From Candidatus Avimonoglobus intestinipullorum (GTDB lineage Bacteria > Bacillota > Clostridia > UBA1381): DNA of 51,030 bases. A program made the translations under genes and the position numbers. The notes beneath the pieces were generated by a model, which searched no databases, was not told where the DNA came from, and was given only the letters and a program-made list of their open reading frames with translations. Positions 33,432 through 38,346 of this stretch are shown one piece after another (the stretch's first letter is position 1; each line of letters opens with the position of its first letter). The stretch is from contig DVND01000019.1 in NCBI GenBank assembly GCA_018714645.1, positions 1 through 51,030 of the forward strand, read 5' to 3'.

Positions 33432-33467
33432 AAAAAAAGACGGAGACTTCCGTCTCCGCCTTTTTTT
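33432..33467. terminator. bidirectional intrinsic terminator
   Basis: A7 - CGGAGAC-ttcc-GTCTCCG - T7. Ends the minus-strand three-gene secreted operon and insulates it from tyrA. Confidence 0.8.
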
Positions 33468-33505
33468 AATTCAATCAATTTTCAAAATTAGATTGAAGAA
33501 CAAAC

Positions 33506-33667
33506 TTACCATTCGTATGAAATACCCATATCGCCGCTGTTCCCGGTGATATCGCTGACATCGTTCAAATTTTCCATGTCAACAACAGGTTCTTCGCCGC
33601 TGACTGTGATGATGTCTTCAACTTCGAACTTTTTGATTTCGATTGATGGCTTTTCATATATTTTCAT
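33506..33667 (-). CDS. 53-aa acidic, cysteine-free small peptide of unknown function
   Basis: The ATG at 33667 is preceded by AAAGGTGG at about 8 nt, and lies 19 nt after the stop of the upstream gene. Product: MKIYEKPSIEIKKFEVEDIITVSGEEPVVDMENLNDVSDITGNSGDMGISYEW. There is no signal peptide or TM segment. The ORF-track start at 33739 overlaps the upstream gene and lacks an RBS. Confidence 0.6.
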   Translation of the reverse strand: MKIYEKPSIEIKKFEVEDIITVSGEEPVVDMENLNDVSDITGNSGDMGISYEW

Positions 33668-33686
33668 AACCTTATACCACCTTTCT

Positions 33687-34919
33687 TTACTGTGCCGCCG
33701 GGAATGCCACGGCCGCAGAATCTGTCGCCGCACCAACACCGGTTGTTACGTTAGAAGTGCCTGTATAGTCACCGGCAATATCCGTCAGGATACCGATGAT
33801 GAAGGACAGTTCGCCCTGGATGTCACCGTAGTTGATAACCTTGAACGTCACTTCTTTGCCTTCGCCGTCTGCCGTCGGGCCAGCAACAACAACGTTTGCA
33901 TCCGTGATGGATTCGCCGTTGCCGTTCATGGTAACGTCAAAGTATACGCCGCCCGTACCGTTGTTCGCTGTGATATCGGTTGTCGGCTGCTGCGGCTGCG
34001 GAGCTTCCTTCTTAGGAACAGTTACAGTCGCTGTGCCGGATACACTGTCGTCAGCATCAGAAGTAGCTGTGATTGTGATCGTCTGATCTTCATCTGTAGC
34101 AGCAGGAGCTGTGAATACGCCCTCTTCTGTGATTGTACCAGCAGTTGCGCTCCATGTTACATTCTGATCTGAATACGGATTGTCATCAGAACCGATAACT
34201 TCCGCTGTGAAGGTCTCCTGCGCTTCGCCTGCAACTGTTGCAGTTGCCGGTGTAACGTTTACAGATTTAACTGTGATTGCCGGAGGAGTGGGTTCTGTAT
34301 AAATGTATTCAGCCGTAATGGTGTCAAAATTACCATTTCCATCGCTTCTATACGTGGTGTTGTTGATCAATTGTCCAAGAGAAACACCACTAACTTCATA
34401 TATTTGTGAAGAAGCAATTAAATTGTCAAAACTCTTAACCAGATTATATTTTTGCACATCTTCTAATGTCATATCAGAATCCTGTAAAGTACAATTTAAT
34501 CTAAATAAGGCATCCCCATTTTGAGCAAACTCATATGGATTAGATACACCAAACGCATATGTTACACTCTTTCCATCAACAGTTACCGGTTGGCCTACAA
34601 TAGCCATACCATTAATAGCACTAAACAAAGTGTCTACTTCATCACTTAAAGTAAGATTAACCTGAATAGTGTTAAATCCACTTGCTGTTGCGCCTGAATA
34701 TTCGCCCCAATCGTTATCATACTGTACACCATACTCAGCGTCAGATGATATTGAGAACTCTACAATAGCCCTACCACTCCGAACTTCTGTAACCTGTCCT
34801 GTAATTTTAGGATTAACAGATTCTGCTTCCGGAGTTGCGGCACTAACACTGCTGACAAAAGTCAACATCATGCTGCAGGATATAGCAACTGACAGCAAAG
34901 ATGAAACAATCTTTTTCAT
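33687..34919 (-). CDS. secreted multidomain protein: N-terminal cohesin-like beta module, Big_2 Ig-like domain, C-terminal beta module
   Basis: 410 aa. Signal peptide MKKIVSSLLSVAISCSMMLTFVSSVSA. A clear Big_2-type segment (VKSVNVTPATATVAGEAQETFTAEVIG...VTWSATAGTITEEGVFTA...ITITATSDADDSVSGTATVTV). The N-terminal 175 or so aa are beta-rich, and the cohesin-like call rests on size and pattern only. Confidence 0.7.
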   Translation of the reverse strand: MKKIVSSLLSVAISCSMMLTFVSSVSAATPEAESVNPKITGQVTEVRSGRAIVEFSISSDAEYGVQYDNDWGEYSGATASGFNTIQVNLTLSDEVDTLFSAINGMAIVGQPVTVDGKSVTYAFGVSNPYEFAQNGDALFRLNCTLQDSDMTLEDVQKYNLVKSFDNLIASSQIYEVSGVSLGQLINNTTYRSDGNGNFDTITAEYIYTEPTPPAITVKSVNVTPATATVAGEAQETFTAEVIGSDDNPYSDQNVTWSATAGTITEEGVFTAPAATDEDQTITITATSDADDSVSGTATVTVPKKEAPQPQQPTTDITANNGTGGVYFDVTMNGNGESITDANVVVAGPTADGEGKEVTFKVINYGDIQGELSFIIGILTDIAGDYTGTSNVTTGVGAATDSAAVAFPAAQ

Positions 34920-34940
34920 GCATTTTCCCTCATTTCTAAA

Positions 34941-35561
34941 TTAATTTACAGTCGTTGTTCCCAACGATGATTGTCCCAAGATATGTCCAAACACTGCAGC
35001 AACATCACCGACATCTATACCTTTAATGCCGTCACAATCTGCCGCAATAAGATTGTTGCCTTCTAACGGAATTGTATTCAAAATCTGGCCAAAAATAGCC
35101 GCAACGTCGCCAACGTCAATTCCTGGTATTCCATCACAATCACCTAACTGAATCGTGATTCCTCCGCCTTCACCAACAGCAACCTCACCGACTAATATAC
35201 CATCGGCATCAATGTTTTCCCCACCGATTTTCACAACGTAGGTTTTACCCTCCTGCAAGCCGCCCTTTAAGCCCATGCCCGCAAACGTCGTCGTATTCGT
35301 TGCGTCATCCTGGTTAATGTACAGGATATCGTCAGCCGTCAACTCAGCCGGATTTGCCACAGCTTTGTCATAAATCAAGATTGTGGTCTGGCCGGACAAA
35401 CTTTCAAAAACTGTACCGGCAACAGTAACTGTTCCCGCAGCCTGGTCATATGTAAGGCTGCCATCCGGGAAAGCCGCTGCAAACGCTGAGGTCGCCAATG
35501 CCAGCGACACAGCGGCGGTTGCCGTGCACGCCAACACAAAGTTTCTCAAAGATTTTTTCAT
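34941..35561 (-). CDS. secreted protein with C-terminal duplicated dockerin-like segments
   Basis: Start at the ATG at 35561 (MKKSLRNFVLACTATAAVSLALATSAFA signal peptide), preceded by GAAAGGAGAA. The C-terminus carries two 22-residue segments, GDCDGIPGIDVGDVAAIFGQIL and ADCDGIKGIDVGDVAAVFGHIL, separated by 12 residues. Confidence 0.7.
   Translation of the reverse strand: MKKSLRNFVLACTATAAVSLALATSAFAAAFPDGSLTYDQAAGTVTVAGTVFESLSGQTTILIYDKAVANPAELTADDILYINQDDATNTTTFAGMGLKGGLQEGKTYVVKIGGENIDADGILVGEVAVGEGGGITIQLGDCDGIPGIDVGDVAAIFGQILNTIPLEGNNLIAADCDGIKGIDVGDVAAVFGHILGQSSLGTTTVN
34977..35144 (-). repeat. tandem duplicated 66-nt coding segments (dockerin-like 22-residue repeats)
   Basis: Segment 1 is 35079-35144 and segment 2 is 34977-35042, offset 102 nt. 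18 of 22 residues are identical, with many synonymous differences at the DNA level, indicating an old duplication. Confidence 0.75.
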
Positions 35562-35617
35562 GTTTGTTCTCCTTTCTAATTTTTGTTCTATGCCACGCCG
35601 CAAGCCGCCTCTCATCC

Positions 35618-35651
35618 GCCGCCCCGGAACTTACCCCACATCCGGCGCGGC
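35618..35651 (-). other. strong GC-rich hairpin in the 5-prime leader of the secreted operon
   Basis: On the minus strand, GCCGCGCCGGA (35641-35651) pairs with UCCGGGGCGGC (35618-35628): 11 positions with one G-G mismatch and a 12-nt loop UGUGGGGUAAGU. No U-run follows, so it is not a classical terminator. Confidence 0.5.
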
Positions 35652-35690
35652 CCCCCGGCCCCGCACAACATATTACATTCACATACCTAC

Positions 35691-35719
35691 ATTATAAACC
35701 CCTCTGCCATGAATTTCAA
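35691..35719 (-). promoter_or_regulatory. candidate sigma-A promoter of the dockerin-like/cohesin-like/peptide operon
   Basis: On the minus strand, TTGAAA (35714-35719), a 17-nt spacer and TATAAT (35691-35696). Confidence 0.55.
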
Positions 35720-35862
35720 TCGGTTTTTGTAAATTTTCTATAAATTTGTTAACAACGTTGCATGGGTTTTTGCATTTTTGTGCAACATTGACAACCCTTT
35801 TTCCAGAATGATGCAAGGCTTTGCAAAAAGCGCCAAAATACCGCTTTTGTGCGCCCCGGCGG

Positions 35863-38346
35863 CTATTTTTGGATGGAGACGGTCCGGTTCTCCCCGTCCC
35901 AATCCACGTTGTATCCGAGCCCTTCCGCCAGCACGCGCACCGGCACCAGCACGCGCCCATCGATCAGCCGCGCCGGCACGTCCAGGGCATATTCCTGCCC
36001 GTTCACCTGTGCGGCGGCGCTGTCCACCGTGAAGGAGCAGCTCTGCCCGCCGCCCGCGGCGGCTGCCGTTTGGGTTTCCTGATCCCATTCCACCTGCATG
36101 CCCAGCTGTTCAAAAATCAGCCGCATGGGCACCAGCGTCCGCCCGTTCTCCACCACCGGCAGGCTGTCAAAGCCCAGCGCCGTCCCGCCGGCGAACACCA
36201 GCACGCTGCCCTCCCCTTGCGGCAGCTCCAGCGCCTCCCGGCCGTTGATTACGAGATACCCGTCTACGTACTGCACGGTCTCAACCGGCCCGCCCACCGT
36301 ATAAGGCGACCAGTACACGCCGTCCCGGGAGGTGTAGAGGGTATCCCCCTCCGTGTAATAATACACGCCGCCCAGGGCTTCGATATAGCCGGGCGCGGCC
36401 CCCTGGTATTCCACCGGCAGGAAGGTCTCGCCGTCCGGGGTGAGGTATTCCGCGCCGTCCGCCACCACCGCCGCAAAGACGCCGCCGTTGTCCCGGGGGA
36501 GCTGCTTCCCCTCATAGGGCTGCCATTGCGCCCCGTCCGCCGACCAGTGCGCCGCCCCGTCCGCCGTGCGCACATAGTACCGGCCGCGGGCATAGCTTGC
36601 CTCCAGCGTCAGCGCCGGGAACAGGTATTGGCTTTGGATGTTCAGCTCCTTGTCCAGGAACACCACCGCCCCCGCCAGCTCCCGGTAGGGGGAATAGTAT
36701 CCCGGGAGGCCGTCCCACATGCGCCAGCGGGCCATATAGCCGTCCCCGGTTTCAATAAATTCGTAGTTGTTTTCGTTCCCGGCAAAAAACGTCTGCGTCT
36801 GGGGCGGCGCGTCCTTCAGCCGGACCGCAACATCGCCCCCAACGAGTTTCCTGGGGATTTGCTCCCGCTCCTCCGCCGCAAATTCCAGCTCCCGGGGGGT
36901 GTCGGAGATATACATGGAATTGCGGATGCCGCCGAACTGGTTGACCGGCAGGATGACCGTCAGCTCCACCTCCGTGACCTGCATGGGCAAAAGCTCCACG
37001 CAGGCCATCATGTCCGAGACCATGTCGTCCGTGGCGCCCTTGGAGACCACCGGCTGCAGGAGGTTCCCCTCCCCGTCCCGCACAATGACGATGGCATTGG
37101 AGGCGGAGCGCATGTTGTACTTCCAGTAGCGGGTCATGTAGCTGTTGTTGTTAATGGAAATGTGGTACGTCGTAGCCACGCCGAAATTGCCCACGCTGCA
37201 GGAAAAGCCGGTGTTATCGCGCTCTGTGGAGAGGGGGTAATTGGGCAGGTAGTCCGCCTCCTCCAAGCCCGTCACCAGGCCGTCGTAACCGATGGTGTCG
37301 CTGTGGTACGCGTCAAAGACCCACACGTCGTCCCGTTCCTCTTCGGGGATGTTGGGGCCGTAGTACAGGAGCTTGGAAGCGTCCTTATATTTGAATACCA
37401 TCAAATCCGACTCTGCGGCGTATTTCCCGTAAGAACCGTCAGCCTGGGGGTTTAAGTGCGTCACCCATTCCGTCATCTGATAGCCGTCGGGATTATATTG
37501 GTTGTAAATTTTCACAGGCAGGTACGTCCCCTCGGGGTTGTACTGGTCGACCTCGTATTCCAGCCAGGTATCCACGATGGGGAGATTGTCGGCGACGCCT
37601 TTGAACATCCTGTCCCGGACGTATTCCCCGAAGGCGGGCTCCGCCGCCATATGGCTGCGGTCGCCCACCGTGCCCGTGGAGCGCAGGGCGGCGATATTCA
37701 TATCCACCACGCCCGTCTGCACCTCAACCTCCCCCGCCAGGAACATGGTCCGGCGGAAGACGACGGGGCTGTAGTTTTCCACGAAGCTGCTGAGCCATAC
37801 GGTCTCCCCTTTTTTCAGCTCCACCGTCACAGGTTCCTGCGGCTCCCCCGCCTCGTAGACGATGGCGCTTTTGAGCTGGTAAATATCTTCGCCCAGCATC
37901 CGGGCGCAGGCGTTTAAGTGGGCGTAGCTGTCCTCCTCGGCGGTGAGGACGCCGTCATCCAGGTAATTGTGCAGCTGGGGCGTTTCAAACGCCGTCTTAT
38001 GGACGACAAACGTAGCGTCCTCCTTTGCGGTGATCTGCACATCCACCTCGATGTCGAAGCCCTTGTCCAGCAGCGTATACATCTCCCGCGGGCCGGTGTG
38101 GTTGATGACCGAGATGTAGAGGCTGTAGTAATCCGGGCCTAAATCTTCATTGTTCATCAGATATTTGGGGTTCTCATTGGAGGTGTCGGCCAGCCATTCG
38201 TTGGTAATGGCCTCCGGGTTGTTGAAGTAGATGAATTTCCCGCCGGCGCGGGGCGTAAAAACCAGGTCGCAGGGCTGCTGCGTAACAGCCTGGGCCGGCG
38301 CGGCGGACAGGAGTATCAAAAACAGCGCGATGATGTATTTTTTCAT
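35863..38346 (-). CDS. large secreted protein: unknown ~560-aa N-terminal region, Asp-box (BNR-like) repeats, two C-terminal stalk (copper-amine-oxidase-N-like) domains
   Basis: 827 aa. Signal peptide MKKYIIALFLILLSAAPAQA. Asp-box-like S/T-x-D-G-x-x-W/F motifs (SADGAQW, SRDGVYW, TPDGETF). The C-terminus has two stalk-type segments (RTLVPMRLIFEQLGMQVEWD and RVLVPVRVLAEGLGYNVDWDGENRTVSI). Confidence 0.75.
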   Translation of the reverse strand: MKKYIIALFLILLSAAPAQAVTQQPCDLVFTPRAGGKFIYFNNPEAITNEWLADTSNENPKYLMNNEDLGPDYYSLYISVINHTGPREMYTLLDKGFDIEVDVQITAKEDATFVVHKTAFETPQLHNYLDDGVLTAEEDSYAHLNACARMLGEDIYQLKSAIVYEAGEPQEPVTVELKKGETVWLSSFVENYSPVVFRRTMFLAGEVEVQTGVVDMNIAALRSTGTVGDRSHMAAEPAFGEYVRDRMFKGVADNLPIVDTWLEYEVDQYNPEGTYLPVKIYNQYNPDGYQMTEWVTHLNPQADGSYGKYAAESDLMVFKYKDASKLLYYGPNIPEEERDDVWVFDAYHSDTIGYDGLVTGLEEADYLPNYPLSTERDNTGFSCSVGNFGVATTYHISINNNSYMTRYWKYNMRSASNAIVIVRDGEGNLLQPVVSKGATDDMVSDMMACVELLPMQVTEVELTVILPVNQFGGIRNSMYISDTPRELEFAAEEREQIPRKLVGGDVAVRLKDAPPQTQTFFAGNENNYEFIETGDGYMARWRMWDGLPGYYSPYRELAGAVVFLDKELNIQSQYLFPALTLEASYARGRYYVRTADGAAHWSADGAQWQPYEGKQLPRDNGGVFAAVVADGAEYLTPDGETFLPVEYQGAAPGYIEALGGVYYYTEGDTLYTSRDGVYWSPYTVGGPVETVQYVDGYLVINGREALELPQGEGSVLVFAGGTALGFDSLPVVENGRTLVPMRLIFEQLGMQVEWDQETQTAAAAGGGQSCSFTVDSAAAQVNGQEYALDVPARLIDGRVLVPVRVLAEGLGYNVDWDGENRTVSIQK

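Follow-up and report, generated by a model that had tools for sequence, protein, structure and literature searches.

A predicted dockerin and the neighbouring variable module form one replaceable cassette in a three-gene locus of gut Clostridia

The dockerin of one secreted protein (G1) and the N-terminal module (N-module) of a second secreted protein encoded next to it (G2) were found to constitute one contiguous, replaceable cassette of foreign composition. The cassette lies in a three-gene operon of the 51,030-nucleotide stretch of DNA analysed here (the window); it is the main feature of the locus and was overlooked in the preliminary description of this DNA. Dockerin type follows N-module type and not phylogeny. 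The best explanation of the locus as a whole, which we hold with slightly better than even confidence, is that its operon provides a self-contained extracellular assembly of two proteins, without enzymatic activity, in which G1 and G2 are most likely connected by a dockerin-cohesin-type joint; for the allele carried by the window this joint is putative.

The genes for G1 (206 aa), G2 (410 aa) and G3 (53 aa) are located on the minus strand, with a near-consensus promoter at one end and a bidirectional terminator at the other (Table 1), and each is preceded by a GGAG/GGTGG-type ribosome-binding site. The preliminary description had reported a sigma-A promoter at 35691-35719, a structured leader of about 125 nt, three tightly spaced genes and a strong bidirectional terminator, and each of these features was borne out. 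The promoter agreed with the consensus at 11 of 12 positions and its region was approximately 100% identical among loci of the same species; the leader was approximately 123 nt long and more stable than its shuffled counterparts (z = -2.58; 0 of 200 shuffles equally stable); the gaps were 21 nt between G1 and G2 and 19 nt between G2 and G3; and the hairpin at 33436-33458 was present on both strands. The leader matched no family in Rfam, and across lineages no conservation was found in it beyond the context of the ribosome-binding site, TTAGAAAGGAG. The arms of an imperfect inverted repeat enclose the coding region precisely from the start of G1 to the stop of G3; this repeat was confined to the loci of this species and was absent from other lineages.

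Table 1. Positions of the features of the G1-G2-G3 locus within the window.
Feature	Position	Strand	Basis or remark
Sigma-70-type promoter-like site	35691-35719	-	TTGAAA-17-TATAAT, 11/12 consensus positions
5' leader, ~123 nt, GC-rich, moderately structured	35562-35690	-	MFE -40.7 kcal/mol
Imperfect inverted repeat, 22 nt, two arms	33484-33505 and 35562-35583		86% complementary
G1, secreted, 206 aa, starts MKKSL	34941-35561	-	ORF; family alignment; AF2 model
G1 signal peptide, residues 1-28	35478-35561	-	Sec-type; ends SAFA, before A
G1 conserved beta-sandwich N-domain, residues 29-134	35160-35477	-	generic fn3/Ig-like fold matches only
G1 predicted dockerin, residues 135-206	34944-35159	-	orthology and predicted fold
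Non-canonical dockerin core, G140-L161 and A174-L195	34977-35144 (35079-35144; 34977-35042)	-	loop D-C-D-G-I-x-G-I-D-x-G-D, then helix
Minimal replaceable cassette (dockerin, intergenic region, G2 signal peptide, N-module)	34286-35156	-	blastn breakpoints
G2, secreted, 410 aa	33687-34919	-	ORF; family alignment; domain matches
G2 signal peptide, residues 1-27	34839-34919	-	ends VSA, before A
G2 variable type-A N-module, residues 28-208	34296-34838	-	beta module, ends in invariant YR-x-DGNG
G2 Ig-like (Big_2-type) domain and PQ linker, residues 209-313	33981-34295	-	homology to Ig repeats
G2 family-specific C-domain, residues 314-410	33690-33980	-	alignment; without PDB relative
G3, acidic, 53 aa	33506-33667	-	in every complete triad; alignment; purifying selection
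Intrinsic terminator hairpin, bidirectional	33436-33458	both	7-9 bp stems, then T runs

In blastn comparisons with loci of the same species, homology to the window stopped at 35140-35302 and resumed either at 34285 (L001, L014) or at 34022 (L002, L003, L011, L024); the larger block replaced in other alleles, 34023-35215, takes in the Ig-like domain. The breakpoints recur at domain linkers. The flanks of the cassette were 95-99% identical among same-species loci, and at least seven alleles were found at this single locus, between near-identical flanks, in strains of one gut bacterium. Third-position GC content was 32% in the dockerin, 26% in the N-module and 33% in the Ig-like domain, compared to 52-61% in the rest of the operon and 68-83% in neighbouring host genes. 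The DNA of L022 could be aligned to the window solely in the cassette part.

The two ends of the cassette were coupled in type. All six DCDGI-type G1 proteins with a known neighbour (window, L004, L021, L022, L005 and L007) were encoded beside a type-A N-module, and no canonical-dockerin G1 with a known neighbour was. Across 13 triads, dockerin distances were correlated with those of the N-module (Mantel r = 0.73, p = 2e-4) and not with those of the G1 N-domain (r = 0.05), and the DCDGI/type-A pairing was kept where identity in the conserved domain of G1 was 45-50%. The Ig-like type assorted independently of the N-module, since P0033 and P0042 have the same N-module and different Ig types. Because the dockerin and the N-module are contiguous in the DNA, co-inheritance alone could yield such coupling without interaction.

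The 206-aa G1 protein carries the signal peptide that had been ascribed to it, with cleavage between SAFA and A, and by orthology and predicted fold its C-terminal module is a divergent dockerin. The duplication, segment length and spacing on which a dockerin architecture had been proposed are present: two segments of 22 residues each, beginning at residues 140 and 174, lie 12 residues apart and are identical at 18 of 22 positions. An EF-hand-like calcium loop has its acidic or amide ligands at positions 1, 3, 5, 9 and 12; both loops have D1, D3, D9 and D12, with Ile rather than Asp or Asn at position 5 and Cys at position 2, which confirmed the earlier report of a non-canonical calcium loop with one Cys per segment. 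The Pfam check that had been suggested gave a divided result. The window protein had no match at E≤10, PF00404 included, and likewise none in NCBIfam, but PF00404 (Dockerin_1) was matched by 14 of the 20 aligned orthologues, from a family of 29 members, that were used for this count (best E = 2e-12); the six that did not match were exactly the DCDGI variants. The AF2 model of the dockerin region (pLDDT 91-96) has helices at residues 150-160, 168-174 and 184-194 and was superposed by Foldseek on solved dockerins with TM scores of 0.76-0.86 and an rmsd of 1.2-2.0 Å (2ccl_B, TMt 0.86, 1.2 Å; 5m2o_B, 0.84, 1.4 Å; 4uyq_B, 0.78, 1.5 Å; 5lxv_B, 0.78, 2.0 Å; probability 1.00 each). Taken together, the Dockerin_1 matches of the orthologues and the superposition of the model indicate that DCDGIxGIDxGD marks a recurrent non-canonical dockerin subtype. 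Because the canonical ligand is missing at position 5, it is uncertain whether this loop binds calcium and hence whether the module works as a dockerin.

Across the family the two dockerin repeats were 80% identical within a protein, compared to 32% between proteins, and the most variable helix positions (10, 11, 14, 18 and 20) were the same in both repeats in 85-100% of cases. That the repeats evolve in concert at the exposed positions of their helices implies that selection acts on a surface used for recognition, and the pattern is that expected of symmetric cohesin-recognition surfaces.

For G2, the claimed length of 410 aa and the signal peptide also held (cleavage between VSA and A). Its N-module had been described as cohesin-like, a claim that stood for sister alleles rather than for the window module. 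Isolated N-modules of P0045 and P0044 scored 31.9 and 27.8 bits against PF00963, above the cut-off of 24.1, with L023 (22.7 bits) and L001 (19.6 bits) below it, and L024, at the same syntenic locus, combines a P0045-type cohesin with a G1 carrying a canonical dockerin motif (its Dockerin_1 match is weak and precomputed). On these matches, the N-module position is a cohesin slot at family level. Many other N-module allele types had no cohesin match. The window module had no Cohesin match in Pfam, whether the whole of G2 or the isolated module was searched, and no match among PDB profiles; hhalign against the profiles of cohesin-positive alleles gave a probability of 0.5-0.9%. Its AF2 model (pLDDT 85, pTM 0.82) is nearly all beta, with approximately 9-10 main strands; the beta jelly roll of cohesins has nine. 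The third-ranked Foldseek match was the ScaC cohesin of Ruminococcus flavefaciens, 5lxv_A (E = 1.2e-4, TM 0.40), which was solved in complex with a dockerin; also among the top matches was 2jh2, a cohesin-like module of glycoside-hydrolase toxins of Clostridium perfringens. Resemblance to cohesins was at TM 0.3-0.4 with an rmsd above 9 Å, a level at which AP-2 mu-homology domains score equally.

The assignment of an unambiguous Big_2 domain to G2 did not stand as worded, since the window protein scored 12.8 bits against Big_2 (cut-off 22.8) and 23.4 bits against Big_1 (cut-off 34.9). That G2 contains an Ig-like domain is nevertheless clear from its homologues: residues 213-307 shared 45-62% identity with Ig repeats from many proteins, several of which are annotated as Big_2, and 13 of 18 G2 orthologues matched Big_2 at E≤1 (best 1.4e-7), these being E-values and not gathering scores.

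The third gene is equally part of the unit. G3 has 13 D/E and 4 K/R residues, and the earlier account of it as an acidic 53-aa peptide without an export signal was correct, the calculated pI being 4.05 and no hydrophobic export signal being found; an extracellular role for it is therefore unexplained. The window peptide had no match in Pfam or NCBIfam, and just three further representatives were found among 1.84 billion proteins. Its first 23 aa are conserved (MK-Y--P------F---D-IT-S), the middle varies, and the Trp at the C-terminus is invariant. Across lineages, the first 23 codons showed 107 synonymous and 102 non-synonymous codon differences, which indicates that G3 is a real gene under purifying selection. 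G3 may be an accessory peptide that acts with the conserved domains of G1 and G2.

G1-G2-G3 is a conserved unit across lineages. When the conservation of the gene neighbourhood was checked, as the preliminary description had advised, the three genes co-occurred across lineages; unrelated genomic contexts with the triad numbered at least eight, each of them including G3, and among these neighbourhoods were those of L005, L007, L009, L017, L018, L019 and L023. The absence of a glycoside hydrolase (GH), scaffoldin, SLH, sortase or LPXTG context also proved correct, in the window and near the triads: no LPXTG motif or second dockerin motif was found in the 51-kb window, no GH, SLH or sortase genes within approximately 8 kb in syntenic loci, and no GH, SLH or scaffoldin genes near any triad. 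No catalytic or carbohydrate-binding domain was detected in G1 or G2. With no enzyme domain, no scaffoldin, SLH or sortase near the triads and no other dockerin motif in the window, the locus was not assigned to a cellulosome or amylosome. The proteins contain no anchoring motif (SLH, LPXTG, lipobox at the proper distance or transmembrane segment), so their display at the surface is conjecture.

We propose that G1 and G2 are exported by Sec and that the G1 dockerin binds the G2 N-module, which would join both proteins. The coding sequences of the two modules predicted to interact adjoin each other, that of the dockerin lying at the 3' end of G1 and that of the N-module at the 5' end of G2, and would be replaced together via homologous recombination at linker sequences that are conserved. 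As a consequence of this joint replacement, strains within one species would hold different, mutually matched joint alleles. The business ends (the G1 N-domain and the G2 C-domain) and G3 would remain conserved. The window carries the DCDGI allele, with Cys at position 2 and no acidic ligand at position 5, which always accompanies the divergent type-A module. G2 may be the holder and G1 its displayed, adhesin-like cargo, and the allelic diversity may reflect diversifying selection, for instance because strains keep a secreted partner private or evade phage or antibody.

It is unlikely that the two modules are linked without interacting, as a hypervariable exposed stretch that is swapped as a block under phage or antibody pressure and in which the type-A module is no cohesin. 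Such a reading would account for the single contiguous block of variable DNA, for the lack of a cohesin sequence signal and the weak fold match of the type-A module, and for the missing cohesin match in many other allele types. It sits less well with the several alleles that have true Pfam cohesins in the same slot, paired with true dockerins, or with the concerted dockerin repeats, whose helix surface implies selection for recognition. Furthermore, in this sample the N-module is uncoupled from the Ig-like block in some cases but from the dockerin in none, and the DCDGI/type-A pairing persists at the G1-domain divergence given above. A bolder reading, which we consider rather unlikely, makes the locus a strain-specific extracellular lock and key, in which G1 is captured by the G2 of the same allele only and cassettes are traded between species ready-matched. 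Privatisation or kin recognition would then operate via cohesin-dockerin specificity, DCDGI/type-A would be a new interface class, in which the dockerin has lost one calcium ligand and acquired a Cys and the invariant D-G-N-G acidic loop of the partner could complete the metal site across the interface, and G3, with its leader-like N-terminus and hydrophobic-x-Trp C-terminus, would be an indispensable third component, of a hitherto undescribed kind.

Dockerins usually work in multi-component systems, and in L020 a dockerin protein resembling the G1 N-domain adjoins a separate protein with a canonical cohesin and Cu_amine_oxidN1. On these grounds G1 might dock on a scaffoldin encoded elsewhere, and G2 recruit other dockerin proteins, within a larger cellulosome- or amylosome-like assembly; given the lack of a further dockerin motif in the window and of GH, SLH or scaffoldin genes near any triad, and since the pair moves intact into unrelated contexts and its joint is exchanged as one piece, this is quite improbable. 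We regard as very improbable a system centred on the peptide, in which G3 would be a ribosomally made, leader-bearing, pheromone- or RiPP-like precursor, with processing after the region of the invariant Ser23 and with binding or presentation outside the cell by G1 and G2. With its Y-x-x-P-x-[IV] motif and a Thr at position -2 relative to Ser23, the conserved 23-aa N-terminus of G3 is similar to leaders recognised by an RRE, those of lasso peptides and PqqA for example; the middle of G3 is variable, its C-terminal Trp is invariant, and it is strictly co-inherited with G1 and G2; one homologue also gave weak NCBIfam matches to a thiopeptide precursor (E = 0.043) and a lasso leader (0.19). These scores are far below the cut-offs, however, G3 has no double-glycine site, and the conserved neighbours of the triads include no maturase, RRE protein, peptidase-domain exporter or radical-SAM partner. 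A lasso fold for G3 was excluded, as Cys is absent from the core and Asp/Glu does not occur consistently at its positions 7-9; this acceptor is present in some homologues and missing from most.

In cellulosomes, cohesin-dockerin pairs serve as the classic connectors of high affinity, and synthetic biology makes wide use of them. Accounts of their specificity normally compare species, or paralogues of one genome. On the preferred reading of a dockerin-cohesin-type joint, the present case is one small, enzyme-free locus of gut Clostridia with many matched dockerin/cohesin alleles, imported as low-GC cassettes. If binding is cognate only, these alleles would amount to a natural library of orthogonal connector pairs, would include a new dockerin subtype missed by current HMMs, and would offer a tractable case of why a commensal diversifies an extracellular protein-protein interface (privatisation, phage or antibody). 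The strictly associated 53-aa G3, near-absent elsewhere among 1.8 billion representative proteins, is worth an experiment.

Adams et al. in 2008 reportedly described non-cellulosomal cohesin and dockerin modules in glycoside-hydrolase toxins of C. perfringens. As in those toxins, the pairing proposed here would lie outside plant cell-wall degradation; unlike the triad modules, those of C. perfringens sit on large enzymes. We know of no allelic cassette exchange or associated peptide for them. At the level of population genetics, the locus resembles the hypervariable cassettes that define specificity groups in Staphylococcus aureus agr (agrB 3' end, agrD, agrC 5' end) and the S-layer of Clostridioides difficile, which likewise show a hypervariable block over adjacent genes, conserved flanks and discrete types within a species. 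Those blocks encode mutually interacting or exposed parts, as is proposed for the triad cassette, but the proteins and functions are entirely different and the likeness is one of analogy, not homology.

The best structural matches included R. flavefaciens pairs, namely 5lxv_A for the N-module and, for the dockerin, 5m2o_B, which is a group 1 dockerin, and 5lxv_B from the ScaC complex. This organism belongs to a related clostridial group, and its dockerins likewise fall into many divergent sequence groups (PMC2930009); those groups are paralogues in one genome that serve one large enzyme complex, whereas here the types are alleles of a single locus across strains. The text of PMC2930009, as distinct from its sequence figures, mentions neither cysteine nor isoleucine. 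Among the closest known arrangements is ClcC/ClcD of Cellulosilyticum lentocellum, a minimal adjacent pair of one cohesin and one dockerin described in 2026, whose complex enhances cellulase activity (PMC13487519). The earlier statement that the present combination is not a described system must therefore be qualified, in that a minimal pair is known, and holds to the extent that the known pair carries cellulase activity. As in the triad, ClcC and ClcD are encoded by adjacent genes, one for a single-cohesin and one for a single-dockerin protein, without a large scaffoldin, and they form a heterodimer. The triad differs in having no detectable enzyme domain, in a joint that is allelic and swapped between strains, in the constant presence of G3, and in a window allele that is non-canonical on both sides.

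The three minus-strand genes of the operon, referred to as the triad, encode a dockerin protein (G1), a protein consisting of an N-terminal module, an Ig-like domain and a C-terminal domain (G2), and an acidic peptide (G3). Re-analysis showed that the preliminary description of the genes, gaps, promoter, leader, terminator, signal peptides and acidic third product was accurate. The G1/G2 and G2/G3 intergenic gaps were 21 and 19 nt, respectively, and all three genes had a good ribosome-binding site. The leader, of approximately 123 nt, had a more stable fold than shuffled controls (z=-2.6). It belonged to no Rfam family, a permissive-E Rfam search yielding chance hits on the terminator only, and no leader conservation beyond the ribosome-binding site context was found in other lineages; on these grounds a riboswitch or known RNA was rejected.

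Features of the window in and around the triad
Feature	Position	Strand	Description
G1	34941-35561	minus	ORF, 206 aa, ordinary Sec signal peptide
G2	33687-34919	minus	ORF, 410 aa, ordinary Sec signal peptide
G3	33506-33667	minus	ORF, 53 aa
Promoter match	35719-35691	minus	sigma-70-type, 11/12 consensus positions, upstream of G1
Terminator	33436-33458	both strands score	hairpin, downstream of G3
Inverted repeat arms	33484-33505 and 35562-35583		22 nt, imperfect, 86% complementary
Cys12 of G1	35526-35528		in signal peptide, context L-x-C
Y-R-x-D-G-N-G motif	34322-34342		G2 residues ~193-199
Upstream neighbour	35863-38346	minus	827-aa secreted protein with C-terminal Cu_amine_oxidN1 domain
Antisense ORF (example)	35821-37455	plus	long ORF opposite a real gene

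The inverted repeat enclosed exactly the three-gene coding block, one arm abutting the G3 stop codon and the other the G1 start codon, including its ribosome-binding site. It was identical in same-species loci and absent from other lineages; it could represent 5'-3' mRNA pairing, an insertion relic or chance, and its absence from other lineages spoke against an invertible element or TIR. Long ORFs antisense to real genes, opposite the GC-rich 827-aa and PDH genes, were taken to be high-GC artefacts and not genes.

Conservation of the gene neighbourhood, which had been proposed as a check, was found both within the species and beyond it. Close relatives (loci L001, L002/3, L004, L011, L014/15 and L024) had the three genes together, in the same order, at a site syntenic with the window, and other lineages (L005/6, L007/8, L009/10, L017, L018, L019, L021 and L023) had them, again together and in that order, in unrelated neighbourhoods. 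The relatives carrying the triad were MAGs labelled Oscillospiraceae (L018) or Clostridia, and a JGI metagenome scan added one locus only. The 827-aa upstream neighbour was kept beside the triad in the window's species only; its Cu_amine_oxidN1 domain (PF07833) was seen in its syntenic orthologues, and its large N-terminal part had no other family match. A related but different arrangement was observed in locus L020 (3630-5693), where a canonical Pfam cohesin is fused to Cu_amine_oxidN1 (370 aa) and the gene directly downstream encodes a protein of 294 aa that combines a G1-like N-domain with an additional beta domain and a canonical dockerin; no G3-like ORF was seen downstream.

The dockerin reading of G1 was borne out, even though the window protein itself had no match in Pfam or NCBIfam. 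G1 belongs to a small family, which accounts for 29 of 5.8 billion clusters. Of its 20 aligned members, 14 matched Dockerin_1 (best E 2e-12), and the remaining six were exactly those with the loop D-C-D-G-I-x-G-I-D-x-G-D, hereafter DCDGI. In the AlphaFold model the dockerin region formed three helices (pLDDT 91-96) that superposed on the solved dockerins 2ccl_B, 5m2o_B, 4uyq_B and 5lxv_B with TM 0.76-0.86 and rmsd 1.2-2.0 Å. Four of the five canonical calcium-ligand positions (1, 3, 9 and 12) were kept in the window protein, with Ile at loop position 5 and Cys at position 2 in both repeats. Across the 20 family members the repeats were 80% identical within one protein and 32% identical between proteins, and at the helix positions that varied most (10, 11, 14, 18 and 20) the two repeats of one protein nearly always agreed; such concerted evolution would be expected of a symmetric recognition surface. 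We conclude that the C-terminus of window G1 is a true dockerin and represents a recurring non-canonical subtype, one that current HMMs fail to detect.

A G1 homologue of 175 aa with a single dockerin repeat was present in locus L019 (4965-5492; Dockerin_1 E 0.005 over half of the model). Cys12 in the G1 signal peptide was invariant in the G1 family alignment and absent in L018 and L019. Lipoprotein anchoring through this lipobox-like residue is unlikely, since it lies 12 residues from the N-terminus, within the h-region of an otherwise normal signal peptide with an A-x-A cleavage site, and those two loci lack it.

The proposal that the G2 N-terminal module is cohesin-like held for its position in the family, and for the window allele it received no support from sequence. 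Residues 28-208 gave a confident, nearly all-beta model (pLDDT 85, pTM 0.82) with weak PDB fold matches (TM 0.3-0.4). AP-2 mu-homology domains ranked level with two other matches: the ScaC cohesin of R. flavefaciens, from a structure with its dockerin (5lxv_A, rank 3, E 1.2e-4), and 2jh2, a cohesin-like module of C. perfringens. The window module had no match in Pfam, even when isolated, or in a profile search against the PDB, and a search for homologues with the module alone returned nothing useful. Comparison with cohesin profiles by hhalign gave a probability of <1%, against a reference that included two C. thermocellum CipA cohesins, whose identity as cohesins rests on Pfam (134.6 and 142 bits) and not on their exact sequences. 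The L020 cohesin likewise had no match when searched against the PDB by phmmer.

Alignment of the G2 orthologues revealed a highly conserved C-terminal region of about 95 aa, two versions of the Ig-like domain and N-modules of many types that were barely related to one another. Two isolated N-modules exceeded the Pfam Cohesin gathering score of 24.1 bits (proteins P0045, 31.9, and P0044, 27.8), and those of L023 (22.7) and L001 (19.6) came close to it. Furthermore, in L024, which is syntenic with the window, a G1 dockerin of canonical motif (weak precomputed Dockerin_1 hit) stands beside a P0045-type cohesin. Because of these Pfam matches and this pairing, the N-module position in G2 is a cohesin slot at the family level; the window-type module that occupies it, designated type A, may be either a cohesin that has diverged very far or another fold that has taken its place.

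Type-A modules end in the motif Y-R-x-D-G-N-G, of which six of seven residues (all but x) were invariant across the window, L004, L005, L007 and L021; it resembles half of the calcium loop of an EF-hand or a dockerin, and the module carrying it neighbours the dockerin subtype that lacks the position-5 ligand. A 510-aa JGI protein named 'ketosteroid isomerase-like protein' in its source (P0052) aligned to G2 residues 8-304 with 31% identity; its N-module is thus a relative of type A and precedes Ig-like repeats, and its C-terminus is unlike that of G2.

The Ig-like domain had been called an unambiguous Big_2. The repeat was clear by similarity to many proteins, and Big_2 matches among G2 orthologues reached E 1.4e-7, but the window protein fell under the Pfam cut-offs. 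This domain is dispensable: L017 has two copies, L023 has a PT linker in its place, and L018 and L019 lack it.

The type of dockerin and the type of N-module were coupled. All DCDGI G1 proteins whose neighbour is known (window, L004, L021, L022, L005 and L007) stood beside a type-A module, including in lineages whose conserved G1 domain was 35-56% identical to that of the window, and no type-A module was found beside a canonical-dockerin G1. In Mantel tests on 13 triads, dockerin distance correlated with N-module distance (r=0.73, p=2e-4) and showed r=0.05 with distance in the G1 N-domain. The G1 N-domain, G2 C-domain and G3 tracked one another, as indicated by the correlations of G1 N-domain with G2 C-domain (r=0.82) and of G2 C-domain with G3 (r=0.92). 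Pure DNA linkage, rather than interaction, could produce the dockerin/N-module coupling, the two being adjacent in the DNA; however, the next block, the Ig-like domain, assorted independently of the N-module, and the dockerin repeats evolve in concert in the style of a recognition surface.

Comparison with same-species loci delimited the exchanged DNA. The flanks were 95-99% identical, homology stopped at window 35140-35302, and it resumed at 34285 in L001 and L014 or at 34022 in L002, L003, L011 and L024. These breakpoints fall at the linker that precedes the dockerin, at the N-module/Ig junction and at the PQ-rich linker that follows the Ig-like domain, so that the minimal swapped block, or cassette, runs from the dockerin through the intergenic region and the G2 signal peptide to the end of the N-module. 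At least seven alleles had verified flanks (A1 in the window, A2 in L004, and those of L001, L002, L011, L014 and L024), and P0037, P0039 and P0044, from short contigs, probably represent further alleles.

GC3 was 32% in the dockerin, 26% in the N-module and 33% in the Ig-like domain, compared to 51-61% in the rest of the operon and 68-83% in neighbouring host genes. In L022, from a distant lineage, DNA could be aligned to the window in the cassette part only. This limited alignment and the low cassette GC3 show that the cassettes are foreign and shared between lineages. Since the conserved operon parts also fell below the host genes in GC3, the whole triad may be a relatively recent acquisition of this host. 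A phage, plasmid or defence origin was rejected, as blastn of phage and plasmid collections gave no match, PADLOC returned nothing and PHROGs gave weak Ig-domain hits only.

G3 was found in every complete triad and was under purifying selection. The peptide is acidic (pI 4.05) and has no hydrophobic segment; the C-terminal Trp is invariant, as are M1, K2, Y4, P7, F14, D18 and S23. When 1.84 billion representative proteins were searched exhaustively, three further relatives only came to light. At the N-terminus G3 is similar to leader peptides of the RRE type (Y-x-x-P-x-[IV] ... T-x-S), and its C-terminal end is hydrophobic-x-Trp. No conserved maturase or exporter was found near the triads, and G3 had no lasso or lanthipeptide hallmarks. 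A lasso peptide was rejected due to the lack of a consistent acceptor residue and of a cyclase or RRE neighbour.

In the mechanism that we propose, G1 and G2 would both be exported and the G1 dockerin would bind the G2 N-module, with function carried by the conserved G2 C-domain and the conserved G1 beta-sandwich. In the favoured arrangement, a holder would display an adhesin-like cargo, but the analysis detected no anchor motif. Cassette exchange would diversify the joint between G1 and G2, and G3 would be an accessory.

Literature searches found no published description of the triad, and searching the text of one R. flavefaciens dockerin survey (PMC2930009) did not bring up a Cys/Ile-type calcium loop. 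We classify the triad as a putative pair of cohesin and dockerin, non-enzymatic and self-contained, whose interface cassette is allelic and traded horizontally; its dockerin subtype is new, and it includes a small peptide as an obligatory part. The closest described system is ClcC/ClcD of C. lentocellum, which is an adjacent single-cohesin/single-dockerin pair; in contrast to the non-enzymatic, allelic triad, that pair has cellulase activity and is not reported as allelic (PMC13487519).
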